A stretch of DNA of 63,681 nucleotides, counting the filler, from Sphingomonadaceae bacterium (GTDB lineage: Bacteria > Chloroflexota > UBA6077): NCBI GenBank assembly GCA_050261575.1. It is 3 parts of 3 records of this genome, joined end to end, with 100 filler letters (N's around TTAATTAATTAA, not from the genome) between each part and the next. Parts side by side here need not be neighbours in the genome. Positions count along the whole stretch, not along the records: positions 1 to 27,825 come from JBLNDL010000071.1; 2 more parts are not named here. The stretch is one strand, 5' to 3'. The notes below the pieces were generated by a model. That model was not told the origin of the DNA. It searched no databases and saw nothing but the letters and a program-made list of their open reading frames with translations. Below are positions 1 to 63,681 of the stretch, one piece after another. Every line of letters starts with the position of its first letter. The first letter of the stretch is position 1. The translations under genes were made by a program, and so were the position numbers.

Positions 1-129
1 GGGGGGGGCCCGGGGGGGTGCCCTGGGGGCGGGCCCCCGGGGGCGTTTCCTCGGGCCCGGGGGGCCCGGGGGGCGCGAGCCCGAACCCCGTTTCGCACGA
101 CCCGCGCTCCCCTGTCCTGGGCGGCACGT

Positions 130-699
130 CTATCTCCTCTCCTGCGCCGCGGAACCGGACCGCTCGAAAGGCAGAACCACGAACTCACAGCGTTCGTCTC
201 CACGGAACTGGCAGGCCACCTCCTCGCACACCACCTCCCTGTCCAGCAGCTTGGACAGGAATCCGGCAAACATGCCCCGGCTGTAGTGGTCCACGCAGCG
301 GGGCGTCCGGTAGACCCCGGATCGTATGGCCACGGCGGTTTCGAAGAGGTTAGTGCCGGTCAAGCGAGCCTCGGGCTCGCGCAGGTCGAAGTGTACGACT
401 TCGAGGTCACCGTATCCCATCAGCTTGTAGTTATCCACCAACTGGCGAAAGGCCCTCTCGGGGCCGGCGACGCCGACAGGATAGGCGGCCATCAACTGCT
501 CGCCCACCCGAAAACCCATGTCGTAGAAGGCGTATCTGATCACATGGGGGGCGTGCTCGTGGAGCACCCGCATGAGGAAAACGTAGGCTGCCTCGGTCAT
601 CGCCACCGAGCGAACCGACTCCACAGTGAGCGTCCCCTCGAGACTGCGGATGGACTCCTCGCTTCGCTCTGTCGGCTGCTGCATGCTCTCTTCCGACAT
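130..699 (-). CDS. V4R (4-vinyl reductase-like) small-ligand-binding domain protein
   Basis: G-x-G/GDLEVVHFD core and C-terminal C...EVACQFRGDERCEF Zn-site motif typical of V4R domains. ATG at 699 follows a GAGGTG RBS (ORF track starts at GTG 705). Confidence 0.85.
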   Translation of the reverse strand: MSEESMQQPTERSEESIRSLEGTLTVESVRSVAMTEAAYVFLMRVLHEHAPHVIRYAFYDMGFRVGEQLMAAYPVGVAGPERAFRQLVDNYKLMGYGDLEVVHFDLREPEARLTGTNLFETAVAIRSGVYRTPRCVDHYSRGMFAGFLSKLLDREVVCEEVACQFRGDERCEFVVLPFERSGSAAQERR

Positions 700-712
700 G
701 GTCACCTCGCCG

Positions 713-1489
713 CTATCGTTGTGGCTGCACGATGATGCCGGTCCGAGCGTCGATGCTGAACTGGTGCATCACGCTGGTGAATTGCCCGCTCTTCAGCTTG
801 CCCAACTGCAGGTAGCGCTGGAGTGCACCGTTGACCGAGACGTACTGCATCTTCAGGATCATCGGGTAGGCATGAGAGAGACCGTAGAACGCCCTCTCCT
901 CCATGACGCCGCCCACGTAGACGTCCAGGGTCAAGGCACGCCTCGCCCGCAGGTAGCGTAGACGGTGCCCGGAGAACTCCAGGATCTCCGCGGTGGATGC
1001 AGTGGAGAAGATGGTGGATATGGAGTCCACCACCAACCTCACAGGAGCATCCCCCAAGCCGTCCAGCACTCGCTTCTGGTACAGAAAGAACTCGTCGAAG
1101 CTGCCTGGGTCGGGGATGAAGTGGCGCTCGGTGGAGCGCTCCCGGCTATAGGCGTCGATGAAGATCAGGTCCCCTCTGCGCTCGTGTGCTATGGTCCCCA
1201 GCCGCAGGGCGACCATGCTATCCCGCATGACCGAGGGTGGCTCGTCACAGGCCACGTAGACGCACTTGTCGCCGACCAGCAGCCCCTCGTGCAGGTACTG
1301 GGCTGCCAGCACGCTCTTACCTATCCCCGTGTCCCCCTGCACCATGATCTGGGTGTCGTAGCTGATGCCGGCCGGGATCAGGTCGTCCATCCCCTCGACA
1401 CCGAAGAAACCCCGTCGCTCCCCCCCTTGTGGGCCACCGGCCCTTGGCTCAGAATGCTCACGGCTGACGGAGGACGGCTGCCCGCTCAC
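713..1489 (-). CDS. Single-domain KaiC/RAD55-family ATPase
   Basis: Walker A GDTGIGKS, YVACDEP, Walker B LVVDS, C-terminal RYLQLGKLKSG...FSI. Overlaps the upstream gene by 4 nt. Confidence 0.85.
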   Translation of the reverse strand: MSGQPSSVSREHSEPRAGGPQGGERRGFFGVEGMDDLIPAGISYDTQIMVQGDTGIGKSVLAAQYLHEGLLVGDKCVYVACDEPPSVMRDSMVALRLGTIAHERRGDLIFIDAYSRERSTERHFIPDPGSFDEFFLYQKRVLDGLGDAPVRLVVDSISTIFSTASTAEILEFSGHRLRYLRARRALTLDVYVGGVMEERAFYGLSHAYPMILKMQYVSVNGALQRYLQLGKLKSGQFTSVMHQFSIDARTGIIVQPQR

Positions 1490-2910
1490 GCCTCCACCTC
1501 CTCGGCCCTCGGGATGAGCTGGATGCCCCGAGATGTGATCTTCATCAGATGGTTGCCACTGGAGTGGTTCACCCCCCGCAACTTGTACACCTCCAGATAT
1601 CGCTGTCGCCCCTTCTTCTCCCGCACCATCTTCAGCACCATGACGCCATCGATGATCGATTCCTCCACACCGAAGCGGCTGATCTGCTCGGAACCCACCG
1701 GAGGATCGGTGGTGATCAGGGCAGTGACGCCGTTGGCCTTGAACATGGAGGACATCTGGTAGACGAAGCGGCGGACCTCGTCCGGGTCACCGATCCGCTG
1801 GGCCAGCACGGTAAGGGAGTCGACCGCGACCCTCTGAGCCCCGAACTGCCGCACCACGTCGTCCATGCGGACCAACTCCTCGTTCGGGTTGACCTCCGGC
1901 AGTGGGGTGTAGTTGATCTGGATCATGCCGCGTGCTCGCTGCTCATGCAGATCCCAGCCGAATCCGGACGCGTTCGTCTCGATCTGGGCAGGGGTCTCCT
2001 CGTAAGTGAAGTAGACGCCCTTCTCGCCATACTCCGCCGCCCCCATGTAGAGGTACTGCATGGAGAGCGTGGTCTTGCCCGTACCCGCCTCTCCAGCGAG
2101 CAGCATGGGGCTGCCCTTCGGAATGCCTCCCCGCAGTATGGTGTCCAGCTCGTCGATGCCGGTCTTCGCCATCTCCAGTCGGCTGTAGGTGAGGTCCGGT
2201 GGGGCCACGAACTGAGCGGCGAACAGGTTGATGCCGTTCTCGCGGATATCGAAGTTGTAGGCCCCGGTCTGGTGGTCGACGCCGCGCATCTTGATCACCC
2301 GCAGGTACCGCTCCTGCTCATCGTGGCGCGTTTCGGTGTAGAGCCAGATGATCCCGTCGGCCACGGCGAACTCTGGCATGCGGGCGACGTCCTCTCGGGA
2401 GTACTCCCCCACCAGCAGCGTGGTGGTCTGCATTGCCGAGAGCTCGATCGCCAAGTCGTAGATGAAGATACGCATCTCGGCGGGGTCCGAAGAAAGGTCG
2501 TGAACAGCTTTGAACGAATCGATGACGACCAGGTAGGGCTGATGGACCCGCAGCAGCTCGGCGATGGCGTCGGCGGCCTTCCCGAGCCCCTGTTGCCGCA
2601 TCACCTGGCCGATGTCCATGTAGGTGACCGACTCGCCGAACTTGCTGGCGTCGAAGAAGTCGAACATGGACTGGTAGCGGGCCACCTTGATGGGCGGCTC
2701 CGAGAGAGTGGTGAGGTAGGCCCCCTTGTGCTCGGCGCTGGCGTTGGCAAAGAGGATCTGCTGGGAGAGAATGGTCTTGCCGGCACCGGGCTCGCCCGCG
2801 ATGATGATCATCGAGTATGCGGGTATGCCTCCCCCCAGGATGCCGTCCAGCGCCGGGATCCCGGTGGAGAAGGTGCTGGCCGAACCTCGCGCGGATCCCA
2901 CGCTGCTCAT
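1486..2910 (-). CDS. Double-domain KaiC-like ATPase
   Basis: Two RecA-like domains: STGIPALD..GGGIP/GEPGAGKT/VVIDS/KMRG and TGIDELD..RGGIP/GEAGTGKT/FTYEE/VAVDS/KLRG. Confidence 0.93.
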   Translation of the reverse strand: MSSVGSARGSASTFSTGIPALDGILGGGIPAYSMIIIAGEPGAGKTILSQQILFANASAEHKGAYLTTLSEPPIKVARYQSMFDFFDASKFGESVTYMDIGQVMRQQGLGKAADAIAELLRVHQPYLVVIDSFKAVHDLSSDPAEMRIFIYDLAIELSAMQTTTLLVGEYSREDVARMPEFAVADGIIWLYTETRHDEQERYLRVIKMRGVDHQTGAYNFDIRENGINLFAAQFVAPPDLTYSRLEMAKTGIDELDTILRGGIPKGSPMLLAGEAGTGKTTLSMQYLYMGAAEYGEKGVYFTYEETPAQIETNASGFGWDLHEQRARGMIQINYTPLPEVNPNEELVRMDDVVRQFGAQRVAVDSLTVLAQRIGDPDEVRRFVYQMSSMFKANGVTALITTDPPVGSEQISRFGVEESIIDGVMVLKMVREKKGRQRYLEVYKLRGVNHSSGNHLMKITSRGIQLIPRAEEVEA

Positions 2911-3242
2911 TGAGTCTTTCCTTTCTTGGCCAACTCCTCGGCCTCGTGGAAAAGCTTTCCCGCGATGAGCCGGCCGATCAGGCCGGAGAGGGCGTCGAAG
3001 AACTCGTCCAGTAGCGCCTCGAGGCTGGCAGTCAGTTCCGGCTCGCTCACCGCTCCAACGTGCCGCTTCGCGTCAGACCAATCCAGCCCCTCCTCGCGCA
3101 CAGTCAGGTATCCAACGAATGGGTGGCCTCGAGCCTGGCGAACGATGACGTTCTTGGCGATGGCGTTGATGGTGCGGAGACCGAAGGTGGGCGAGAGCCG
3201 CTGCCAGACGATCCTCGTCACTCTTTCGTAGATGCTCAGCAT
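2907..3242 (-). CDS. Small helical KaiC-associated protein (paralog of 5129-5551)
   Basis: 111 aa from ATG 3242, 4-nt overlap with the next kaiC-like gene. Ungapped similarity to the 5129-5551 product. Confidence 0.75.
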   Translation of the reverse strand: MLSIYERVTRIVWQRLSPTFGLRTINAIAKNVIVRQARGHPFVGYLTVREEGLDWSDAKRHVGAVSEPELTASLEALLDEFFDALSGLIGRLIAGKLFHEAEELAKKGKTQ

Positions 3243-3380
3243 CTCGATCCGCCTGTCCGTCAAAGGTCCATCCTCCGCTCGGCAACTCCGTCTGTCCGTG
3301 CGGGCTCCTCCCCGGCACCCCATGGGCCGCGATCGAGCGCCTTGGACGCGACCCCGCACCACCATCACGCAGGCCCACCG

Positions 3381-5099
3381 TTACCTCTTCGGCCGTTTCG
3401 GCACGGCGCCGGGCGCGATGAGGGTAACCCGGTAGACCGTCCTTCCTCCCTTCGCTGTCCGCAACACGTAGCCCGTGTCCACCAGCTTGTCCAGCATCCC
3501 CTGCACCTCGCCGGGCTTCAACCCCATGCTCTCCGCCAACTGTTGGACATCGCTGTTGGGCAGCGCCAGCAGCACGTGCATCAGGGCCTCCTCCTGATCG
3601 GATAAGCCGGTGGTGAATGGCTGCAGGCCCATCACCGTCCGCAGGGTGGGAATGCCCGATAGAATGCCCGAGTACTCGGTGAACGCCTTCTCCACTTGCA
3701 CACCCTTATCCGTGATCTGGTACTGCCGCAGCTCCTTGTCGTGGTCGGAGGTGCGCATCTTCACCACCATCAGCGCCTTGCGCAGTTGCGACTCGATCTC
3801 GGCGTAGCGGAGCAGGATCACGTTGTCCGCCAGGAAGGCGATCCTCTGGGGAGAGATCTGCACGCTCCCCGTCAGGTCAGGAACCTCGGTAGTGAGAAGG
3901 GTGGTGACTTCCTGGCTGGAGAGAGCCGTGAGCAGCCGGTAAAGAGCCTCGCGGAAGTCCTCCTGGTCGGCTGGAGAGATCGACATCTCGAAGCCGGAGA
4001 CGGAGTTGATCACCACCCGAGTGGCTCGTAGCTTCGCCGCCCAACGGTTCACCTCATACAGCACCTCGTCCACCGAGAGATCCGTCGGCCGTAGGTAGAT
4101 CACCTTCAAGAGCCCCTTCTCCTCCAGGGCACCCAGGTTCCAGCCGAAGCCCGCGGCCTTCCGCTCGTGCTCTCGGGGGTCCTCTTCGAAGGTGACCATC
4201 ACCGCCGCTTGCCCGATGCGGGCCCCCTCAACGATGAAGTGGAGCGAAAGCAGGGTCTTGCCGGTGCCGGAACTGCCGGCGATCAGGCAGGTTTGGCCGG
4301 TTGGGATCCCCCCGCGCATCATCTCGTCCAGACCGGGGACGCCGAAGCTGGCGCGCCCCGTTGGAAGCTCCGTGCCCCCTCTCGGCGGAACGGCCACCGC
4401 CCGTGGGAAGAGGAGCAGCCCATCTTCGGTGATTCGGAAGGTGTGGCACCCTGGCATCGCAGCCTGGCCCCGCAACTTGACCACCTGGAGCTTGCGCACC
4501 ATCGAGTTCTGGCGAACCTGTTGGTCCAACCAGATGATCCCATCGGCCATGGAGAACTCGGCGCCGGCAATTGCCTCCCGGTGTGAGTACTCCCCCAGCA
4601 GCAGGGAGGTGATTTCCCAGGCTGCCAGGTGCACACCCAACTCGTGAATGAAGGCCCTGATGCTGTAGTCTCCATCGGGGCACGCAGAGTCCTCCAGGGA
4701 CTTGAAGCTGTCGATCACCAGGAAGGACGGCACCACCCTGTCCACTCGCTCTCGTATCACCTCCAGCGTGCGCTTCAGCCCCTCATCCCGGACAACCCCC
4801 GCCAAGTCGAAGAAGAATATCGATGAGTTCAACTTGTCGGGGTCAAAGAAAGTGAACTGCTGCTGGTAACGCACCAACTTCAGCAGGGGCTCACCCAGCG
4901 TGGCGATGTAGATCCCCTTCTGGTCAGGGGTGGCGTTGTGGAAGAGGAACTGCTGAGCCAGGCTGGTCTTGCCAGAACCCGGCGGCCCGGCAACAACGTT
5001 GATGGAGTAGGCTGGGAGCCCCCCTCCCAACACCACATCCAGATTGGGGACCCCAGTTGGGACCTGGCGGATCTGAACCTTGTCTGTGCGCCGTGCCAT
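3381..5099 (-). CDS. Double-domain KaiC-like ATPase with C-terminal TrmB-like winged HTH
   Basis: GPPGSGKT and GSSGTGKT Walker A motifs, VTFEE, KLRG/KMRT. C-terminus GLSDQEEALMHVLL...VQQLAESMGLKPGEVQGMLDKLVDTGYV..RTVYRV is a wHTH. Confidence 0.92.
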   Translation of the reverse strand: MARRTDKVQIRQVPTGVPNLDVVLGGGLPAYSINVVAGPPGSGKTSLAQQFLFHNATPDQKGIYIATLGEPLLKLVRYQQQFTFFDPDKLNSSIFFFDLAGVVRDEGLKRTLEVIRERVDRVVPSFLVIDSFKSLEDSACPDGDYSIRAFIHELGVHLAAWEITSLLLGEYSHREAIAGAEFSMADGIIWLDQQVRQNSMVRKLQVVKLRGQAAMPGCHTFRITEDGLLLFPRAVAVPPRGGTELPTGRASFGVPGLDEMMRGGIPTGQTCLIAGSSGTGKTLLSLHFIVEGARIGQAAVMVTFEEDPREHERKAAGFGWNLGALEEKGLLKVIYLRPTDLSVDEVLYEVNRWAAKLRATRVVINSVSGFEMSISPADQEDFREALYRLLTALSSQEVTTLLTTEVPDLTGSVQISPQRIAFLADNVILLRYAEIESQLRKALMVVKMRTSDHDKELRQYQITDKGVQVEKAFTEYSGILSGIPTLRTVMGLQPFTTGLSDQEEALMHVLLALPNSDVQQLAESMGLKPGEVQGMLDKLVDTGYVLRTAKGGRTVYRVTLIAPGAVPKRPKR

Positions 5100-5128
5100 C
5101 GTACCTCCCAGCCGGGCGGGTCGCTCCT

Positions 5129-5551
5129 CTACCCCGATCCTCTTTCGCCTTCAGGGGGGCGCAACTCCTCCAGAAGGGGCCTCGCGATTACCTCCCCCGT
5201 CAGCTCGGCAAGCGTGCGAAAGGTGGTGAAGAACAGCTCCTGGAGAGCCTTGCACAGGTCACGTAGGTCTTCGTTGGAGACTTCCCCACTCACTCTCGAC
5301 AGGTCGGGTCCATCGTCACCGACGCCCACCAGTGCCGCCTCAGGATACCGGCGGGAGGCGACATTGACGGCGTATTGCAGGATAGCCTTCGCCCCACCGG
5401 AACCGAGCACAGCCTCCATGCGAATCCAGGTAACACGCAGCGCGTATCGGTAGGCTTCCATCGCCTCTCGGCTGCCGCACTGTTCCGGCGTGAGACCCAG
5501 CGCAACGATTATGGTCTGCCTGAGAGTCTCGGGATCCTGAGATGATGCCAC
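5129..5551 (-). CDS. Small helical KaiC-associated protein (paralog of 2907-3242)
   Basis: GTG at 5551 preceded by GGAGAGGCGGAG. First gene of the operon; similar to the 2907-3242 product. Confidence 0.72.
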   Translation of the reverse strand: MASSQDPETLRQTIIVALGLTPEQCGSREAMEAYRYALRVTWIRMEAVLGSGGAKAILQYAVNVASRRYPEAALVGVGDDGPDLSRVSGEVSNEDLRDLCKALQELFFTTFRTLAELTGEVIARPLLEELRPPEGERGSG

Positions 5552-5696
5552 CCTCCGCCTCTCCCACCACGGTCCTGCCGGCTGCGCAAGATGCATTCCG
5601 TTTGGGTTTGGCGCCGCCTCTCCTCAGTCTCTCTCCCACCTGCCCCAACCGTGCTATCCTACGCGAGACGCCTTCTTTAGAAGAGAGGAATCTCGA

Positions 5697-7133
5697 TTGC
5701 CTGCGGAGCAGTATGGAATCCCGTACGGTTGTGGCATCCCCAGGCTGGTGATCGGCGGCACCAGCAGCGGGGTGGGCAAGACCACCCTATCCGCCGGACT
5801 GATGGCAGCACTCCGCAGCCGGGGCCTGAGGGTGCAGCCCTTCAAAGTGGGTCCCGACTACATAGATCCCAGCTACCACCAGGCAGCCGCGGGGGCTCCC
5901 TCTAGGAATCTGGACAGTTGGATGGTGCCCGAGGGGGCACTGATGGAGCTGTTCCCCCGGGCCTGCGAGGGGGCCGACGTAGCGGTGGTCGAAGGGGTGA
6001 TGGGGGTCTTCGACGGCTTCGGCGGGCGAGACGACGCAGGAAGCACGGCGGAGATCGCCAAGTTGCTGAACGCCCCCGTGCTGCTGACGATGAACGTGGG
6101 GAAGATGGCTCGCAGCGCCGGGGCGATGGCATTGGGCTACGCCCGATTCGATCCAGCGCTACGAGTGGCGGGATTCCTGCTTAACGGCGTAGCCAGTGAG
6201 GGCCACTACCAGATGGCTCGCGAGGCCATCGAGGGCTGCGGCGCGGGCCCCGTCCTCGGCTACCTGCCCCGAGTCCCCGACCTGCAGCTCCCCGAGCGGC
6301 ACCTTGGGCTAGTCCCAACCGCCGAGCGGTCCCTTCCCGAGGGGTTCCTGGAGAGGCTGGTGGGACTGATCGAGACCCACGTGGACGTTGAGAGGGTGCT
6401 GGAAATCGCCCGATCGGCGGCAAGCGCCCAGCGCCCAGAAGCCGGAACCCAGGCCCCGGCGCCCGGAACGCTGTTCCCGCGCGAGCCAGTGCCGCCCAAG
6501 GCCACCATCGCACTGGCCGCGGACGAAGCCTTCAACTTCTACTACCAGGACAACCTGGACCTGCTGCGGGCCCACGGGGCCAGGCTGCTGCCCTTCAGCC
6601 CCCTCCGGGATCAGGCCATCCCCCCGGAGGCAGACGCCCTCTACCTGGGGGGCGGATTTCCAGAGATGCACGCGGGGCGGCTATCGGCCGGCCGGCCGAT
6701 GCTGGAGTCGATCCGGCGGGCGGCGCAGGCTGGGATGCCCATCTACGCCGAGTGCGGTGGGCTCATGTACCTGACCCAGGGGATCGTGGACGCCGATGGA
6801 GGCCGCCACCCCATGGTGGGGTTGCTTCCGGGCTGGTGCACCATGGAGGGCAGCCGTCTGCAAATGGGATACGTCGAGGTCGCCTCGCTCCGCCCAACAC
6901 CGCTGGGCCCCGCGGGAACGCGAGCCCGGGGCCACGAGTTCCACTGGTCCAGATGGGAAGGGATGGAGCCCTCTCTCGGTGCCTACCGCATCCTCAACCA
7001 GGGTGATCGCAGTGAAGGTTACGCGCAGGGCAACCTGCTGGCGACCTTCGTCCACCTGCACTTCGGGGCCAACCCCGGCCTCGCCCCCGCCTTCGTCGAG
7101 AGCGCCCTCACCTTCCGCCGCCTGCGCCGGTAG
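5697..7133 (+). CDS. cobB: Cobyrinate a,c-diamide synthase (CobB/CbiA)
   Basis: SGVGKTT, FKVGPDYIDP, VEGVMG, ERHLGL, GGGFPE, YAECGG, GHEFH. Exact start uncertain. Confidence 0.95.
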   Translation: MPAEQYGIPYGCGIPRLVIGGTSSGVGKTTLSAGLMAALRSRGLRVQPFKVGPDYIDPSYHQAAAGAPSRNLDSWMVPEGALMELFPRACEGADVAVVEGVMGVFDGFGGRDDAGSTAEIAKLLNAPVLLTMNVGKMARSAGAMALGYARFDPALRVAGFLLNGVASEGHYQMAREAIEGCGAGPVLGYLPRVPDLQLPERHLGLVPTAERSLPEGFLERLVGLIETHVDVERVLEIARSAASAQRPEAGTQAPAPGTLFPREPVPPKATIALAADEAFNFYYQDNLDLLRAHGARLLPFSPLRDQAIPPEADALYLGGGFPEMHAGRLSAGRPMLESIRRAAQAGMPIYAECGGLMYLTQGIVDADGGRHPMVGLLPGWCTMEGSRLQMGYVEVASLRPTPLGPAGTRARGHEFHWSRWEGMEPSLGAYRILNQGDRSEGYAQGNLLATFVHLHFGANPGLAPAFVESALTFRRLRR

Positions 7134-7148
7134 CGACCTGCCGCGGTT

Positions 7149-7433
7149 CTACCTTGCCCTCACCCCCAGGACGAAGAGGGCCACCGGCGGCAGAGCCAGG
7201 GCGAAGCGCAGGGGAAAGGCTGCTTGGGACGGATGGAACCCCAGAGAGGGCACGGCGACGAGCAGTTGAAAGCCCGTCAGGTAGACGCCGAGCAGCAGGT
7301 AGTAGAGGTCCTGTCGCCGCCGCCTGCGGGCGAGAGCCCAGCCGCAGTAGACGACGATGGCTATCGAGAGAAGGAGGAACAAGGCGTTCCAGAAGGGAAG
7401 CCGGGAGAATGCCTCCAGGGCCGGTGGGAGCAT
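7149..7433 (-). CDS. Small membrane protein (about 3 TM)
   Basis: 94 aa hydrophobic ORF from ATG 7433 with GAGG RBS. It is the C-terminal part of ORF 7149..7958. Confidence 0.55.
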   Translation of the reverse strand: MLPPALEAFSRLPFWNALFLLLSIAIVVYCGWALARRRRRQDLYYLLLGVYLTGFQLLVAVPSLGFHPSQAAFPLRFALALPPVALFVLGVRAR

Positions 7434-7731
7434 GTCAGACCTCGCCGAGTGTTTGGTTCTCACCCGTGCCGGCAGCGCGGGTGTAGTCTCACCCCAATTA
7501 TAAGCTAGCGATTGACTCCGGCGACCACGATATGGAGAATGGAAGAGCATTACTGTTCCTCCATTGCCGACGGCGTCAGGGGGGAATGCTCCAGCATCCA
7601 CCACCGCGGGGTGCCCAGCCTGCGAAGTTGGAGACTCCTCAACGACGACGGTACGGCGAACCCAACCCAACCGGCTCGAGACCCAGGCAGACCTCACACT
7701 ACCACTGCGCCTACGAAGGAGAAGAGGGGGT

Positions 7732-8823
7732 ATGAAACGACACTTCGCCTCACTGGCGGCCGTGATCGCGCTGGCAACCCTCGTGCTCGGCGGGTGTGCG
7801 CCGCAGGCAGCACAGCCCGCGCCCACCCAGGCGCCGGCCAAGGCCGCCGAGCCGACTAAGGCCCCGGCGGCAGCCGCAACCGCCGAACCCACCAAGGCAC
7901 CCGCTCCGGCGAAGAAGGTGGACTTCCCGGAGAAGGGGAAGTCGATCTCCCTAATCATCGGCTATCCGGCCGGCGGCGGCGCCGACATCGCGGCCAGGGT
8001 CCTCCAGCCGATCCTCGAGAAGGAGTTGGGGGTTCCCGTCCAGGTGGTCAACCGGGCCGGCGCGGGCTCGCAGGTGGCAATCGCCTCAGTGGCCACGGCC
8101 AAGCCCGACGGCTACACAATAGGGTACGCCAACTGGCCGACGATGATCACCATCTACCTGGATCCCGAGCGTAAGGCCACCTTCGGCCGAAAGGACCTGC
8201 AGCCCCTGGCGCTCCACGTCTCCGACCCGATGGCCATAGCCGTCAAGGCCGACTCGCCCATCAAGGGGATCAAGGATCTGCTGGACGAGGCCAAGGCGAA
8301 GCCCGGCGCCATCAAGGTGGGCACCAGCGGCATCCTCAGCCACGAGGACCTCTCCTTCCGGCAGATGGAGAAGGAGACCGGGGCCAAGCTCAACATCATC
8401 GCCTTCGACGGCGCCGCACCCGCGGTGACCGCCCTGCTGGGGAACCACATCGACGCGGTGGGCCTCGGCTTCAGCTCCATGCTCTCCTCGGCGAAGGGTG
8501 GCCAGACCCGCATCATAGCGACCCTGGGCGCGGGTGGAGACCAGTTCCTGCCCGGCACGAAGAGCATGGAGGACCAGGGCTACAAGGGGTACTTCTCGCT
8601 GGGCCGGGGCTGGTTCCTGCCTGCCGGGACCCCCAAGGAGATAATCGACGTTCTGGACTCCGCATTCAAGAAGTCGATGGAGAGCGAGGAGCACAAGAAG
8701 AAGATCCTGGAAGTGGGACAGGTTACCACCTACAAGGGCCCCGAGGAGTTCGGGAAGTGGTGGGATTCCATGGAGGCTACGGTGAAGCCTCTGATGGAAC
8801 TGGCGAAGCAGCAACAGAAATAG
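7732..8823 (+). CDS. Bug/TctC tripartite tricarboxylate transporter solute-binding lipoprotein
   Basis: Lipobox LGGC, Ala/Pro linker, FP.K.I.LII.YPAGGGAD..AR, V.VVNRAGAG, KPDGYT, ALLGNHID. Confidence 0.92.
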   Translation: MKRHFASLAAVIALATLVLGGCAPQAAQPAPTQAPAKAAEPTKAPAAAATAEPTKAPAPAKKVDFPEKGKSISLIIGYPAGGGADIAARVLQPILEKELGVPVQVVNRAGAGSQVAIASVATAKPDGYTIGYANWPTMITIYLDPERKATFGRKDLQPLALHVSDPMAIAVKADSPIKGIKDLLDEAKAKPGAIKVGTSGILSHEDLSFRQMEKETGAKLNIIAFDGAAPAVTALLGNHIDAVGLGFSSMLSSAKGGQTRIIATLGAGGDQFLPGTKSMEDQGYKGYFSLGRGWFLPAGTPKEIIDVLDSAFKKSMESEEHKKKILEVGQVTTYKGPEEFGKWWDSMEATVKPLMELAKQQQK

Positions 8824-8834
8824 CAGGAGAATCC

Positions 8835-8864
8835 GTGGGGGGCGGGTCTGGGCACCGCCCCCAC
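8835..8864. terminator. Hairpin between convergent genes (bidirectional terminator or REP-like)
   Basis: GGGGGCGG...CCGCCCCC stem within GTGGGG...CCCCAC ends. Confidence 0.55.
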
Positions 8865-8870
8865 AGCACC

Positions 8871-9809
8871 CTACCCTATCTTCTCCTGGGCTATGGGTGC
8901 CGGCTTCAGCTCCGTCCGCTTGCCGGCCTTGACCATGCAGCTATCCAGCTTATGGGGCACTACCTCCTGGACCCGCTTCGCCACGGCGATGAGGGCATCC
9001 AGGTCTATCCCCGTTTCGATCCCCATCTCGGTGAGCATGTTCACGAGGTCCTCAGTGGCCACGTTTCCCGTCGCCCCCGGGGCATAGGGGCAGCCGCCCA
9101 AGCCCCCGACAGACCCATCGAACCGGGTCACGCCGGCCTGCATGGCCGCCACCACGTTGGCAAGAGCCATATCCCGCGTGTTGTGCAGGTGCAGGGTGAA
9201 GGTCACGTCCGGGAACCGATCCAGCAGGTAGGCGCAGGTGTCGTAGGTCTGGCGGGGATTGGCGACACCGATGGTGTCTCCCAGGCTCATCCGGACGATT
9301 CCCATCTCCCGATAGCGGGTCATGATCCGCTCCAGCCGCGCGATCGGAACATCCCCCTCGAAGGGACAGCCGAAGACGCAGGCCATCCCTGCTTCCACCT
9401 CGATCCCCGCATCCAGGGCCACGGGGACCATTTGCTCGAACTCGCGGAACGAATCGTCGATGGATCGATTGGCATTCGAGCGGTTGTGGGACTCAGTGAC
9501 GGACATCATCAGGTGCAGCCCGTCGGGCCGCAGGGCGATGGCTCGCTGGAGACCCTTCATGTTGGGAACCAGCACCTGGTACTTGACCCCCGGCACCCGC
9601 TCGATCTTCGACATCACCGCCTCGGCATCTGCCAACTGGGGCACGGCCCTGGGATGGACGAAGGAGGTCGCCTGGATCTCCGGGATGCCGGTCCGTGAGA
9701 GGGCGTTCACGATCTCGATCTTGGTCTCGGTGGGGATCCAATCGTGCTCGGCCTGGAAGCCGTCACGCGGCCCCACCTCCATAATGTGGACCCGCTTGGG
9801 TAGCTGCAT
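8871..9809 (-). CDS. Hydroxymethylglutaryl-CoA lyase family protein
   Basis: EVGPRDGFQ, LHLHNT, GLGGCPYAPGATGNVATED. ATG 9809 with GGAGGAG RBS. Confidence 0.92.
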   Translation of the reverse strand: MQLPKRVHIMEVGPRDGFQAEHDWIPTETKIEIVNALSRTGIPEIQATSFVHPRAVPQLADAEAVMSKIERVPGVKYQVLVPNMKGLQRAIALRPDGLHLMMSVTESHNRSNANRSIDDSFREFEQMVPVALDAGIEVEAGMACVFGCPFEGDVPIARLERIMTRYREMGIVRMSLGDTIGVANPRQTYDTCAYLLDRFPDVTFTLHLHNTRDMALANVVAAMQAGVTRFDGSVGGLGGCPYAPGATGNVATEDLVNMLTEMGIETGIDLDALIAVAKRVQEVVPHKLDSCMVKAGKRTELKPAPIAQEKIG

Positions 9810-9826
9810 AGCTCGCTCCTCCCATA

Positions 9827-9856
9827 AGTCCTGGGTGCTGAGTGCCGAGTACTGAG
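9827..9856. repeat. Heptamer tandem repeat (AGTCCTG/GGTGCTG/AGTGCCG/AGTACTG)
   Basis: Four degenerate 7-bp units. Related units at 22636-22656 and 23749-23769. Confidence 0.6.
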
Positions 9857-9886
9857 CCCTCAGCCCTTGCCTCTCCGCGTCCCTGG

Positions 9887-9953
9887 GCAGGTTTCTCCAG
9901 TTCACGTCGACTTTCTCTACCGGGAGACGTGCACTCTATCTGGAGATACCTGC
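9887..9953. mobile_element. MITE-like 67-bp palindromic repeat, copy 1
   Basis: GCAGGTTTCTCCAG...CTGGAGATACCTGC terminal inverted repeats. Abuts the TAG stop of the CoA-transferase gene (9954-9956). Confidence 0.75.
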
Positions 9954-11186
9954 CTAGATCACTCCGTCTGCCTGGAGAGCCTCCACCTCCTCGGTGCTGA
10001 GGCCCAACTCGTCCTGGTAGATCTCCCAATTGTGTGAGCCTATGGCCACAGGCCCGGGGAAGCGGACCGCCCCCGGGGTCGCCGAGAACTTCGGGACGAT
10101 CCCCGGCATCGTCACCTTCCCCAGCACCGGATGGTCTATCCGGATCAGATCCTCCCGCTCCCAGTAGTGGGGGTCCTCGAAGATATCGGCCATGCTCGGG
10201 ATCGGGCTCACGGGCACCCCGTTCTCGTCCAGCAGCCTGGTGACCTCGTCGAAACGCTGCCGCGAAAACCACTCCTGGACCAGGGCCAGGATCTCCTCCC
10301 TGTGCTCCACCCGATGGGGGTTGGTGTCGAAGCGGGGATCGCTCAGGAGGTCCGGCCTGCCCATCACCTCTGCCAGACGGGCAAACGTGCGATCGGTGCT
10401 GGTGACCAGAATCACCCACTTGCCATCCTGGCACTGGAAGGCGCCGGCCGGAGCCGACTCCTGGAGGGCGTGTCCCGCCCTCTCCCTGGCCTTGCCGGTG
10501 AGGTCGTACTGGGAGATGGCCGTCTCGAGCAGCCGGAAGACGGACTCGTACAGGGCGATGTCCACCTGCTGCCCCTTCGCTCCCTCGCGGACCTTCAGGT
10601 GATACAGGGCCATGGCGGCGGCCATGGCGCCGAATAAGCCGGTCACGTAGTCCGCCAGCGGGAAAGGCGGGCTGACAGGGGGCCTATCGGGGTAGCCCTG
10701 CATGTAGGTGAGGCCGCCGAAGGCGGTGGCAGGCGTGCCGAACCCGGCCTTTCGGGAGTAAGGGCCCGTCTGCCCGTATCCCGAGATGCGGATCATGATG
10801 ATCCTGGGGTTGACCTGCTTGAGCACGTCGTAGCCCAGCCCCCAGCCCTCCAGGGTGCCGGGCCGGAAGTTCTCTATCACGAGGTCCGCCCCGGCGACCA
10901 GCCTCTTCAGCAGCTCTTTGCCCTTCTCCTTGCGGATATCCAGGCTGATGCAGCGCTTGTTTCGGCTGAGGATGGTCCACGGACCGGGCACCCCCTTCAC
11001 CACGGGGGCCATCCCTCTGACTCCGTCGCCGACGCGAGGAAGCTCGATCTTGATCACGTCGGCCCCGAAATCGGCCAGAAGGCTGGCGGCAAATGGGGCC
11101 GCGAACACGGTTCCCAGGTCGATGACGCGCACCCCAACCAGCGGGCCCTGCGGCGCAAGACCACTCCTCGGTTCCGCCTCCGACAT
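9954..11186 (-). CDS. Family III CoA-transferase (CaiB/BaiF)
   Basis: GPL.GVRVIDL, LADFGADVIKIE, RNKR.I.LD, IENFRPG, ISGYGQTGP. ATG 11186 with GAGGAGGAG RBS. Confidence 0.93.
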   Translation of the reverse strand: MSEAEPRSGLAPQGPLVGVRVIDLGTVFAAPFAASLLADFGADVIKIELPRVGDGVRGMAPVVKGVPGPWTILSRNKRCISLDIRKEKGKELLKRLVAGADLVIENFRPGTLEGWGLGYDVLKQVNPRIIMIRISGYGQTGPYSRKAGFGTPATAFGGLTYMQGYPDRPPVSPPFPLADYVTGLFGAMAAAMALYHLKVREGAKGQQVDIALYESVFRLLETAISQYDLTGKARERAGHALQESAPAGAFQCQDGKWVILVTSTDRTFARLAEVMGRPDLLSDPRFDTNPHRVEHREEILALVQEWFSRQRFDEVTRLLDENGVPVSPIPSMADIFEDPHYWEREDLIRIDHPVLGKVTMPGIVPKFSATPGAVRFPGPVAIGSHNWEIYQDELGLSTEEVEALQADGVI

Positions 11187-11204
11187 AGTCGACTCCTCCT
11201 CGAA

Positions 11205-11271
11205 GCAGGTAAATCGAGATCGAGTACACGTCTCCCGCAAGAGAAAGTCGACGTGAACTAGAGATACCAGC
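11205..11271. mobile_element. MITE-like 67-bp repeat, copy 2 (inverted relative to copy 1)
   Basis: GCAGGTAAATCGAG...CACGTCTCCCG..AGAGAAAGTCGACGTGAACTAGAGATACCAGC. Abuts the TGA stop of the FAH gene (11272-11274). Confidence 0.75.
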
Positions 11272-12225
11272 TCAGTAACCCACCACCGGATTCTCCAGCA
11301 CGCCGATCCCCTGGATCTCGACCATCACGTGGTCGCCATCCTTGAGGTAGACCGGTGGCTTTCTGCTCATTCCCACCCCAGCGGGCGTCCCCGTCGCGAT
11401 CACGTCGCCGGGCTCGAGGGTGATGGCCTGGGAGAGGAAGGAGATCAACCGAGGTATGTTGAACACCAGGTTGCTGGTGTTGGAGTCCTGCATGGTCTCA
11501 CCGTTCAGCCGCAGGGAGATGGCGAGGTTGTGCGGATCGGCCACCTCGTCCCTCGTGACCAGCGCGGGGCCCATGGGAGCGAAGGTGTCGAAGGACTTGC
11601 CCCTGACCCACTGGCCATCCCCGAGCTGAACGTCCCTGGCACTCACGTCGTTCATCACGGTGTAGCCCGCCACGTACTCCATGGCGTCCTCCTCGGAAAC
11701 CCCCTTGGCCTCCTTCCCGATCACCACCGCCAACTCCGCCTCGTAGTCCACCTGGTCGCTGATCTCGGGCAGAACGATGGGAGCACCCGGAGCGACGACA
11801 CAGCTCGGGAATTTGGAGAAGAGGACGGGCCGCTCGGGGAGAGCCATATCGACCTCCGCGGCGTGGTCCCGGTAGTTCAGCCCTATGCACAACAGCTTGC
11901 CTGGCCGAGGCACCGGCGCCAGCAGCGCAACCTCCTTCACCGGACTCAGCAGCCTCTCCCCTCGTATCCCCACGGGAAAGTAGCCCATGGAGAACTGGGT
12001 CTCTACGTGCTGAATTGCCCGCTGGGCAGCTACAGTAGCCCGTTCGCCCGCAGCCAGAAAGCGCAGCATGTCGCTGGGTAGTTGCGCTTCAGCGAGGGCA
12101 AACGGCAAGGGTATCCCCTGGGAGTGGAGATACGCCGCATACGCTCTGGTCAGGTGAACCACCTGATCTCCGATCGAAGCCCCCACCGCATCCGCGCCAT
12201 CGTGCCGAAAGCTGACCAATCTCAT
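11272..12225 (-). CDS. Fumarylacetoacetate hydrolase family protein
   Basis: CIGLNYRDH, DYEAEL, NDVSARD, GKSFDTF, PGDVIATGTP.GVG. Confidence 0.93.
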   Translation of the reverse strand: MRLVSFRHDGADAVGASIGDQVVHLTRAYAAYLHSQGIPLPFALAEAQLPSDMLRFLAAGERATVAAQRAIQHVETQFSMGYFPVGIRGERLLSPVKEVALLAPVPRPGKLLCIGLNYRDHAAEVDMALPERPVLFSKFPSCVVAPGAPIVLPEISDQVDYEAELAVVIGKEAKGVSEEDAMEYVAGYTVMNDVSARDVQLGDGQWVRGKSFDTFAPMGPALVTRDEVADPHNLAISLRLNGETMQDSNTSNLVFNIPRLISFLSQAITLEPGDVIATGTPAGVGMSRKPPVYLKDGDHVMVEIQGIGVLENPVVGY

Positions 12226-27825: not shown

Positions 27826-27925
27826 NNNNNNNNNNNNNNNNNNNNNNNNNNNNNNNNNNNNNNNNNNNNTTAATTAATTAANNNNNNNNNNNNNNNNNNN
27901 NNNNNNNNNNNNNNNNNNNNNNNNN
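27826..27925. other. Artificial contig-joining spacer
   Basis: 100 nt of N flanking TTAATTAATTAA (stops in all frames). Confidence 0.97.
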
Positions 27926-54195: not shown

Positions 54196-54295
54196 NNNNN
54201 NNNNNNNNNNNNNNNNNNNNNNNNNNNNNNNNNNNNNNNTTAATTAATTAANNNNNNNNNNNNNNNNNNNNNNNNNNNNNNNNNNNNNNNNNNNN
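54196..54295. other. Artificial contig-joining spacer
   Basis: 100 nt of N flanking TTAATTAATTAA. Confidence 0.97.
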
Positions 54296-54416
54296 ACGGC
54301 CACTCCGACCCCGACGGCCACTCCGACCGAGACACCTCTGCCTGCCACGGAGACGCCGACCGCGACCCCCACCGCCACGGAGACCCCGACCGCCACACCC
54401 ACAGCCACCCAGGACA
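54296..54416 (+). repeat. 121-nt terminal direct repeat, identical to 63561-63681
   Basis: Base-for-base identity read from the sequence (ACGGCCACTCCGACC...GCCACCCAGGACA). Confidence 0.93.
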
Positions 54417-61502: not shown

Positions 61503-63681
61503 ATGACTGCAGTCGCTGCTCGGATCCTGGTAGCACTCGTCCTGCTGATCGCCGCAACGCACACGGTGGACGCCGGCCCGACACCACCGGCCGCCGCGCA
61601 ACAACGATTCGCACCCAAGGTCTGGAGCGCCTTGCAGGGTGCTGATCCCGCCGACACGCTGTCCGTGATCGTCACCTTGAAGGACCAGGCCGACCTGCGA
61701 GGATTGGGCACGCTCCATCGGAGCGCGCGGGTACGGGGGGTGGTCGACCGTCTGCGGACGAGGGCTTCCACAGCGCAGCGACCGCTCGTCGCATCCCTCG
61801 ACCAGAAGCGGCGCGAGGGGCATTCGGTTACCGCCGTTCCGTTCTGGGTGTTCAACGGCTTCGCGCTCACCGCGAGCAAGGCCGTCATCATGGAGTTGGC
61901 GATGCGGCCGGAGGTGGCGACGATCACCGCCAACGAGACAATCCCAGCCCCTTCGGCGGTCGCCGCCGCGCCGGCCGAGCCCAACCTCACCCGAATCAAC
62001 GCCCCTGCCCTGTGGGACCTTGGATATCGGGGTCAGGGGGTGGTGGTGGCCAACCTGGACACCGGCGTGGACCTGAGTCACCCGGACCTTGCCGCCCGGT
62101 GGAGAGGGGGCACCAACAGTTGGTTCGATCCAAACGGGGAACACCCCGATGTCCCCACCGACTTGAACGGGCACGGCACCTGGACCATGGGCATCATGGT
62201 AGGCGGGGACGCGGGCGGGTCCGCGATCGGGGTGGCACCCGGGGCGACCTGGATCGCCGCCAAGATATTCAACGATGCGGGCACAGCCACCACAGCCGGG
62301 ATACACGCCGCCTTTCAGTGGCTGCTCGATCCCGACGGCGATCCGTCCACCTCAGACGCTCCCCACGTGGTGAACAACTCCTGGACCTTCGAAAGCCCCG
62401 GCTGCAACCTGGAGTTCCAGCTAGACCTCCAGGCGTTGCGGGCAGCCGGCATCCTTCCCATATTCAGCGCTGGCAACTTCGGTCCAGGGACGAACACGAG
62501 CGCCAGCCCGGCCAACAACCCCGAGGCGTTCGCCGTGGGTGCCACCGACGACTGGGACGGCATCTACTACAACAGCAGTGCCGGACCGTCTGCTTGCGGA
62601 GATGCCGACGCTCTCTTCCCAGAGCTTGTAGCGCCGGGGGTCGACGTCCTTACCACCGACCGCTTCGGCGCTTACTACTCCGGCACCGGCACGTCCCTCG
62701 CGGCCCCGCACGCGGCCGGCGCGGTGGCCCTTCTTCTATCGGCATATCCGGGCCTCAGCGTTGCCGACCAGGAGCGGGCGCTGACCGGCGCCGCCCTCGA
62801 CCTGGGGCCCACTGGGCCGGACGACACCTTCGGGCACGGGAGGCTGGACGTTCTGGCGGCATACCAGTTCCTCGAGGGCGCGGCGCATACCCCTACCGCG
62901 ACGGCGACCCCCACCACGACCGCCACACCCGAGCCGCCGACCCCCACCGCGACCGAGACCTCCACGCCCACTGCGACCCCCTCGCCCAGCCCCACACCTC
63001 GCTTCCCCGACTTCCCGGAGAACCTGCTGGCCAACCCCGGCTTCGAGGACGTCCAGGAGGGCAACCCTCTGCCCGGCTGGAGCATCACGGCCCACGCCGG
63101 GGCCGTCTCCCTGGACCCCAATGCACGTACCGGCGCCCGCTCCCTGCGCCTCTCGTCAAACTCAGGCCCCTCCTTCGCGATCTTCCAGGAGGTCCCGGCC
63201 GCCACCGAGCCGAGCTACAGCTTTCTAGGCTGGGTAAGGGTAGCCAGCGCCAGCGGCTACTTCACCTTCAGCCTGCAGCTTCAACCGATGAACGTTCACA
63301 ACGGGGTGATAAAGACCATCACCCTGGGCACGTTCTCGGCTGTGACGGAGGGGTGGCAGGAGGTGAGGGTTCCCGGGGTGGCGATGCCCGCAGGCACGGC
63401 GAAGGTGAGGCTTGTGCTGAAGCTGTTCAACCTGAAGGGGACGCTGCTGGTGGACGACCTGGTGCTGGTGCCTGGGAGCGTACCGCTCCCCACGCCGGTC
63501 GGAACGACGACTCCGACGGCGACGGCCACCGGGGAGCCGACGACGCCTACGCCGACAGACACGGCCACTCCGACCCCGACGGCCACTCCGACCGAGACAC
63601 CTCTGCCTGCCACGGAGACGCCGACCGCGACCCCCACCGCCACGGAGACCCCGACCGCCACACCCACAGCCACCCAGGACA
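61503..63681 (+). CDS. Secreted S8 subtilase with prodomain, Pro/Thr linkers and CBM4/9-like domain; runs off the window end
   Basis: Absent from the ORF track because it has no stop. ATG 61503, signal peptide, triad LDTG/HGT/GTSLAAPH, oxyanion SAGN, NLLANPGFE domain. Confidence 0.9.
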   Translation, partial: MTAVAARILVALVLLIAATHTVDAGPTPPAAAQQRFAPKVWSALQGADPADTLSVIVTLKDQADLRGLGTLHRSARVRGVVDRLRTRASTAQRPLVASLDQKRREGHSVTAVPFWVFNGFALTASKAVIMELAMRPEVATITANETIPAPSAVAAAPAEPNLTRINAPALWDLGYRGQGVVVANLDTGVDLSHPDLAARWRGGTNSWFDPNGEHPDVPTDLNGHGTWTMGIMVGGDAGGSAIGVAPGATWIAAKIFNDAGTATTAGIHAAFQWLLDPDGDPSTSDAPHVVNNSWTFESPGCNLEFQLDLQALRAAGILPIFSAGNFGPGTNTSASPANNPEAFAVGATDDWDGIYYNSSAGPSACGDADALFPELVAPGVDVLTTDRFGAYYSGTGTSLAAPHAAGAVALLLSAYPGLSVADQERALTGAALDLGPTGPDDTFGHGRLDVLAAYQFLEGAAHTPTATATPTTTATPEPPTPTATETSTPTATPSPSPTPRFPDFPENLLANPGFEDVQEGNPLPGWSITAHAGAVSLDPNARTGARSLRLSSNSGPSFAIFQEVPAATEPSYSFLGWVRVASASGYFTFSLQLQPMNVHNGVIKTITLGTFSAVTEGWQEVRVPGVAMPAGTAKVRLVLKLFNLKGTLLVDDLVLVPGSVPLPTPVGTTTPTATATGEPTTPTPTDTATPTPTATPTETPLPATETPTATPTATETPTATPTATQD

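Follow-up and report, generated by a model that had tools for sequence, protein, structure and literature searches.

A six-gene cassette of KaiC-like ATPases and a V4R protein in a soil bacterium: a possible relay from ligand to two-component signalling, and probably not a clock

The stretch of DNA analysed here (the window; 63,681 nucleotides (nt), filler included) comes from the genome of a soil bacterium of the Chloroflexota (GCA_050261575.1) and carries, at positions 130 to 5551, a cassette of six minus-strand genes encoding three KaiC-like ATPases, a stand-alone V4R protein and two small proteins. In cassette order, preceded by the upstream intergenic region, the features (lengths in amino acids, aa) are as follows.

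5552..5696, no strand: intergenic region of 145 nt between the cassette and a divergent cobB-like gene, presumed promoter region
5129..5551, minus strand: small protein 1, 140 aa; no Pfam match; GTG start preceded by GGAGG; a divergent representative of a helical family that has no name
3381..5099, minus strand: two-domain KaiC-like ATPase with a C-terminal TrmB/MarR-like winged helix-turn-helix (wHTH), 572 aa; from Pfam and orthologue alignment
2907..3263, minus strand: small protein 2, 118 aa; begins with TTG or, alternatively, with the ATG at 3242; its stop codon and the start of the following gene share 4 nt
1486..2910, minus strand: two-domain KaiC-like ATPase, 474 aa; no C-terminal tail
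713..1489, minus strand: single-domain KaiC-like ATPase, 258 aa; resembles archaeal PH0284, TIGR03881 and TIGR03877
130..705 (start at 705 or 699), minus strand: stand-alone V4R protein, 189-191 aa; PF02830

The six open reading frames (ORFs) are spaced by 29, 117, -4, -4 and 7 nt, and the tight packing of the original prediction thus holds for both 4-nt overlaps but not for every gap. A Pfam scan, which places PF06745 twice in the 572-aa protein, twice in the 474-aa protein and once in the 258-aa protein and V4R in the last gene, bears out the predicted set of five KaiC domains in three proteins, a V4R protein and two small proteins without a Pfam family. The cassette ATPases score 91-327 bits against PF06745 (cut-off 26.6) and contain Walker A, which places them within the superfamily. 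Single contigs from two of four sequencing runs, both possibly of the source DNA itself, cover positions 72 or 81 to 6000 without indels. Neither of these long contigs supports bases 1-71, where the sequence opens with a low-complexity run of G/C; this run is probably an assembly artefact, since the long contigs begin at 72 and 81, one of them with a different loose end. The contig does start just past V4R, 129 nt from its stop, as first noted, but the suggestion that more cassette genes are missing there probably does not hold: because the gene after V4R is different in each of six other complete loci, the cassette most likely ends at V4R. Promoter and terminator prediction at the cassette gave nothing above shuffled sequences.

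The gene order, whose recurrence elsewhere had been left as a check, is conserved across two phyla. Six loci came out of a GTDB scan that used near relatives of small protein 2 as queries. Four of them are titled Chloroflexota, the other two are placed in Myxococcota, and all six have the same six-gene order; a metagenome scan added, among the matches listed, at least one further locus in which the first four genes stand in order before the contig ends. Orthologous cassette proteins are 45-68% identical to those of the window, except small protein 1 (at most 39%). In one locus (L067, 9988-11213) the second KaiC lacks its N domain and its C domain is fused to the end of the single-domain gene; two internal deletions, both with junctions at repeated motifs, reflect either decay or assembly collapse. 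The cassette is rare. A profile of its single-domain ATPase matched four of 401 sampled genomes of its own phylum (three with a stand-alone gene, one with a fused form) and at least two of 301 genomes around locus L071 (one stand-alone, one fused); in the Myxococcota genome searches the best 20 or 8 candidates per genome were scored, and 2/201 and 2/301 are lower bounds. This rarity, together with a GC content of 61-63% against 65% for the genome, fits horizontal spread, and the cassette is probably mobile; relatives of the single-domain ATPase are present also in Bacillota and Actinomycetota. The viral contigs searched contained no relative, a plasmid search with the single-domain ATPase gave matches covering at most 37%, and PADLOC returned nothing beyond generic P-loop matches. 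The literature searches turned up no published account of this gene order; Makarova 2017 or its supplements, or those of 10.1101/2022.01.26.477890, may name the small family or the architecture. The cassette is real, conserved and uncharacterised.

The five ATPase domains, 19-42% identical in pairs, were compared in their motifs with clock-type KaiC from the same phylum. The N domains of both two-domain ATPases lack the first Glu of the EE pair in all 15 orthologous domains; the E318-equivalent is, in the available text of the source, the proposed general base. The C domain of the 572-aa protein replaces the Walker B Asp with Asn in all eight orthologues, an exchange which in FlaH strongly reduces nucleotide binding, according to the accessible part of PMC5019145. 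All six complete copies of the 474-aa protein retain the EE pair, the Walker B Asp and KxRG in their C domain, which has a clock-CI-like GVEES loop and reads ES at the S431/T432-equivalent positions. By these motifs it is the sole fully canonical ATPase domain of the five, and the other four sites look slow or binding-only. In a 106-row domain tree the cassette domains stand on branches separate from the clock domains, and the 474-aa C domain groups with N-type domains (support 99). Descent from CI-type domains is a candidate origin for this domain: support was 99 in the 106-row tree, but a smaller, more careful tree of 35 rows gave 80/67 and did not reject the alternative (p-AU 0.51).

The prediction that the system lacks KaiA and KaiB and is non-circadian stands. 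Neither protein had a match in the organism's own 100%-complete genome, both controls being positive in Synechococcus, and the two large ATPases score 194.6 and 196.3 bits against the clock model TIGR02655, whose cut-off of 546 clock-type Chloroflexota proteins pass. None of the cassette ATPases combines an S431/T432 pair with the EE pair, the Walker B Asp and the Arg finger in both domains; clock KaiC motifs are set out in the part of PMC5520375 available to us. It is very improbable that the two small paralogues stand in for KaiA and KaiB and the rings keep time as a KaiB-free hourglass or oscillator. Such a timer would draw on a segment of the 572-aa C domain which we take to be A-loop-like, on the Ser at its S431-equivalent in seven of eight orthologues, on the CI-like loop of the 474-aa protein, and on Pseudomonas homologues proposed as stress timers (10.1101/2022.01.26.477890, available text). 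Besides the absence of KaiA and KaiB from the genome and hidden Markov model (HMM) scores far below the clock cut-offs, it is opposed by the lack of an S-T pair, by the Ala at the S431-equivalent in this genome (AF here versus SF), and by a small family which Pfam gives no relation to KaiB.

The C-terminal wHTH of the first KaiC protein was correctly foreseen: scanned alone it exceeds both the TrmB and the MarR cut-offs. It is kept in all eight orthologues, and a TrmB match is found in nine of nine aligned tails. Since the recognition helix varies and in many cases is acidic, sequence-specific DNA binding by this domain is doubtful on sequence grounds. The C-terminal tails are basic.

A histidine kinase or receiver gene immediately adjoins the cassette in all seven other loci, upstream or downstream, co-oriented or not, and with differing PAS, GAF, Cache and HAMP architectures. 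The original description of a self-contained circuit with no kinase or response regulator is therefore not upheld. By the Pseudomonas-type criterion, a kinase within two genes of kaiC, none lies upstream in the window and downstream falls off the contig; the missing kinase is a local feature, since the upstream neighbour is the divergent cobB (Pfam), the downstream neighbour lies off the contig and the seven other loci each have a kinase or receiver. That the six genes nevertheless form a one-component circuit, with V4R as input, mixed ATPase rings, wHTH output to DNA and kinases as incidental neighbours, we regard as rather unlikely. The constancy of the wHTH, the basic tails and the lack of a kinase among the fixed six genes speak for it; the adjoining two-component genes, the variable, acidic recognition helix and a search of the orthologous cassettes for a shared upstream motif or palindrome, which found none above shuffles, speak against it. 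Adjacency to a kinase is at the same time an association and not a partnership, because the loci are kin and the flanking kinases not orthologous. The base rate in the organism's own genome is approximately 38 kinase and 60 receiver matches among 3224 picked ORFs. Elsewhere in this genome (G000:C53:24974-26967, L084) a fourth KaiC-like gene, with two domains, overlaps a stand-alone receiver gene; this is a common bacterial KaiC-REC pair and a possible partner of the cassette in trans. A two-KaiC relative that is shorter, has another gene order and lacks V4R (L057:7156-10777) consists of KaiC, small protein, KaiC-wHTH and kinase.

Walker A and B are intact in the single-domain ATPase. All 66 sequences compared have Asp in place of the first Glu and a His at the position equivalent to T432, and their finger residue is Lys in 43 and Arg in 23. 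The ATPase forms a long branch of its own in the 106-row tree (support 100). Its best HMMs are archaeal yet it scores below their cut-offs (81 versus 248 and 76 versus 307 bits within the group TIGR03877/03880/03881). Archaeal PH0284 aligns with it, His loop included, and because both have this loop the ATPase may work like PH0284. The idea that the invariant His is unique to the single-domain ATPase was rejected, as PH0284 has a His too; two fused forms place it one position later. In two such loci (L080:529-1977 and L106:6892-9528) the C domain of a two-domain KaiC-like protein is of the single-domain type, and in L106 a 379-aa V4R protein follows. The single-domain type directly precedes V4R in all seven complete cassettes as well as in the fused form of L106, a linkage that substantiates the proposed tie between V4R and the ATPases. 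The V4R protein scores 48.8 bits against PF02830 (cut-off 31), and its His140, Cys160, Cys165 and Cys173, invariant in seven of seven orthologues, likely mark a Zn site and a ligand pocket.

Small proteins 1 and 2 were rightly described as paralogous and uncharacterised (26% identity over 103 aa, E 2e-7; no Pfam family). Small protein 2 is the conserved paralogue, at 48-68% identity across orthologous loci, and the exact 140-aa sequence of small protein 1 is present in the Atlas. A family profile search returned at least 480 clusters (50% identity) at E<=0.001, and a Pfam scan of 134 aligned members gave no shared family. Models of small protein 2 (predicted local distance difference test scores of 92 and 97) give a confident helical domain with one beta-hairpin. 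Foldseek found no match to it at E<=0.001, structure comparison gave best VIA Z values of 5.8 and 6.3 with none standing out, and matches to H-NOX N-terminal and TON_0450 structures (Z 4.8-5.7) are leads only; an Atlas structure search returned unnamed clusters and a weak TM of 0.53 to PatA_N-containing proteins. No PDB sequence matched the family profile below E 0.5, and the NitrOD5 HMM (PF11537), in an HMM comparison only, had no match to the family in six genomes or among the 134 members. Complex prediction for the 474-aa ATPase with small protein 2 scored 0.00, which is evidence neither way.

The small family occurs in 38 of 301 genomes of the phylum. Among 56 distinct copies whose surroundings were read, a subset of those found, 27 stand immediately before a KaiC-like gene, 16 of them within cassettes and 11 outside, and 19 immediately before a kinase; two directly follow a kinase, one is fused to a receiver, and for seven none of these was detected. 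Seven longer family matches scanned included four receiver fusions and one GGDEF fusion. Another 11 loci contain the minimal unit of small protein and KaiC, and the gene after it is often a kinase and in one case a diguanylate cyclase; the order small protein, KaiC, diguanylate cyclase is found on a Caballeronia plasmid. Five genomes with a pair of small-family and kinase genes were tested. In two of them (G139 and G280, 94% complete) the PF06745 matches were all partial and at the level of RadA/DnaB, and the search thus found no KaiC-like ATPase there. The small proteins had been called dedicated adaptors, a label that does not survive: since genes of the family also stand before kinase genes, receiver and GGDEF proteins carry the domain as a fusion, and two genomes in which the search found no KaiC-like ATPase still have it, the family is a general signalling accessory. 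A conserved pair of small-family gene and kinase is seen in L052, L053, L054 and 15 further loci of family f35, with GAF-HisKA in the two scanned. The organism's own genome holds a third, orphan copy (G000:C15:55727-56125, L083) with no KaiC or kinase gene directly beside it.

The best reading of the composition is that two bacterial modules, each of a small protein and a two-domain KaiC-like ATPase, have been joined to an archaeal-like pair of single-domain KaiC and V4R. On balance, and by a modest measure of confidence, we take the cassette for a relay which carries a signal from a ligand through the ATPases to two-component proteins. Gene content, order, motifs and neighbourhood are observed, and each interaction and activity in what follows is our inference. 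The V4R protein would, judging by its family, bind a small ligand or sense metal or redox state at its His/Cys site and, given the gene linkage, act on the single-domain ATPase. This in turn would shift the nucleotide or phosphorylation state of the two-domain ring proteins, with the 474-aa C domain, seemingly the only fully equipped hydrolytic site, pacing the rings. The small proteins may serve as general protein-binding couplers between the rings and two-component proteins. As in the KaiC-kinase modules of Pseudomonas, a histidine kinase or receiver, whether adjoining the cassette or far from it, would pass the signal on, and the wHTH might provide a second output.

Several observations weigh against such a relay. 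Upstream of the cassette in this genome there is cobB and no kinase, the downstream neighbour being off the contig; the flanking kinases of the other loci are not orthologous and may only mark signalling-rich regions; and those seven loci are kin and not independent samples. Of the 19 pairs of small-family and kinase genes, 18 come from one family (f35), and the tie of the small family to KaiC may be loose, since the family occurs in two genomes where no KaiC-like ATPase was found. The loss of the first Glu is not special to the cassette, being common to most non-clock bacterial N domains, and the 572-aa protein of the window has lost its S431-equivalent serine.

The co-transcribed units might also work in parallel, as separate homo-hexamers which converge on a common partner without touching one another. 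Each unit does exist alone elsewhere and the five domains share only 19-42% identity, but we judge this arrangement unlikely, as the order is fixed and translationally coupled across two phyla and the L080 and L106 fusions, with the single-domain type behind another KaiC domain, suggest that this type works stacked on a second ring. Distinctly improbable is an elaboration in which all three ATPases form one stacked or mixed machine, with the V4R-bound archaeal-type ring as a detached third tier on the pace-setting 474-aa protein, the invariant His of that ring perhaps taking or relaying phosphate towards receivers, the 572-aa pseudo-ATPase presenting six wHTH domains and the small paralogues as opposing regulators in place of KaiA and KaiB.

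Among known systems the relay we favour would have its nearest functional counterpart in the KaiC-kinase modules of Pseudomonas, to which it would add parts characteristic of the archaeal hub proposal. In the available text of Terrettaz et al. (10.1101/2022.01.26.477890), the Pseudomonas modules of KaiC-like protein, kinase and regulator share with the cassette a two-domain KaiC-like ATPase without KaiA or KaiB beside a kinase, and often a receiver, and their KaiC-like proteins bind their kinase and cross-interact among homologues. Where they have one KaiC gene, the cassette has ATPases of three types, one of them fused to a wHTH, together with V4R and the two small proteins; a kinase is not among its constant members. 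The cyanobacterial KaiABC clock and the KaiBC hourglass (TIGR02655, PRK09302) have in common with the cassette the RecA-fold double domain, the Walker motifs, the KxRG finger and the presumed A-loop-like segment, but the cassette has no KaiA or KaiB and no S431-T432 pair, four of its five sites are degenerate and its domains branch separately. In 2017 Makarova, Galperin and Koonin are said to have described 'signal transduction hubs' of archaea, in which KaiC-like ATPases are associated with V4R proteins, HTH proteins and small helical partners. The cassette shares these reported associations, and its single-domain ATPase aligns with PH0284; it differs in its bacterial host, its two-domain modules and two-component genes, scores below all archaeal HMM cut-offs and the lack of an HMM match to PF11537. 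The archaeal Death-domain-like (NitrOD5) family is named, and the archaeal hub paper cited, in the accessible part of PMC5847659. With the V4R domains of MopR/DmpR-type proteins, MJ1460 and MsvR the cassette V4R shares a Glu-x2-Cys-x7-Cys metal motif, but it is a stand-alone protein with neither an AAA+ nor an HTH fusion, in most cases the first Cys ligand is missing, an invariant His lies nearby, and its PDB matches, MopR included, are weak (E 0.08-0.4).

Beyond cobB, positions 5697-12225 carry ORFs resembling what we take to be a TctC-type binding protein, an HMG-CoA lyase-like enzyme, a CoA transferase and a fumarylacetoacetate hydrolase family protein. Runs of N at 27826-27925 and 54196-54295 join contigs C71, C72 and C79, and genes past 27825 are not neighbours of the cassette. 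Contig C79 (9386 bp) has an identical 121 bases at both ends (54296-54416 and 63561-63681), which are found also at the end of C42, and is either a circular element or a repeat-bounded contig.

The cassette bears on what non-clock KaiC-like ATPases do, a subject in which the archaeal hub idea is largely a proposal and the bacterial comparison case in Pseudomonas, in the available text, consists of a single KaiC and a kinase. Were the stacked machine true, the cassette would be a ligand-gated KaiC timer wired to DNA and two-component signalling, and the small family a widespread unnamed output domain. The cassette exposes a small signalling domain family that awaits a Pfam name and a solved structure. 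Within 5.4 kb, conserved across two phyla, it unites a ligand sensor with ATPases of three types whose lesions are complementary and with what may be a DNA-binding output, and it lends itself to expression as a whole and to dissection.

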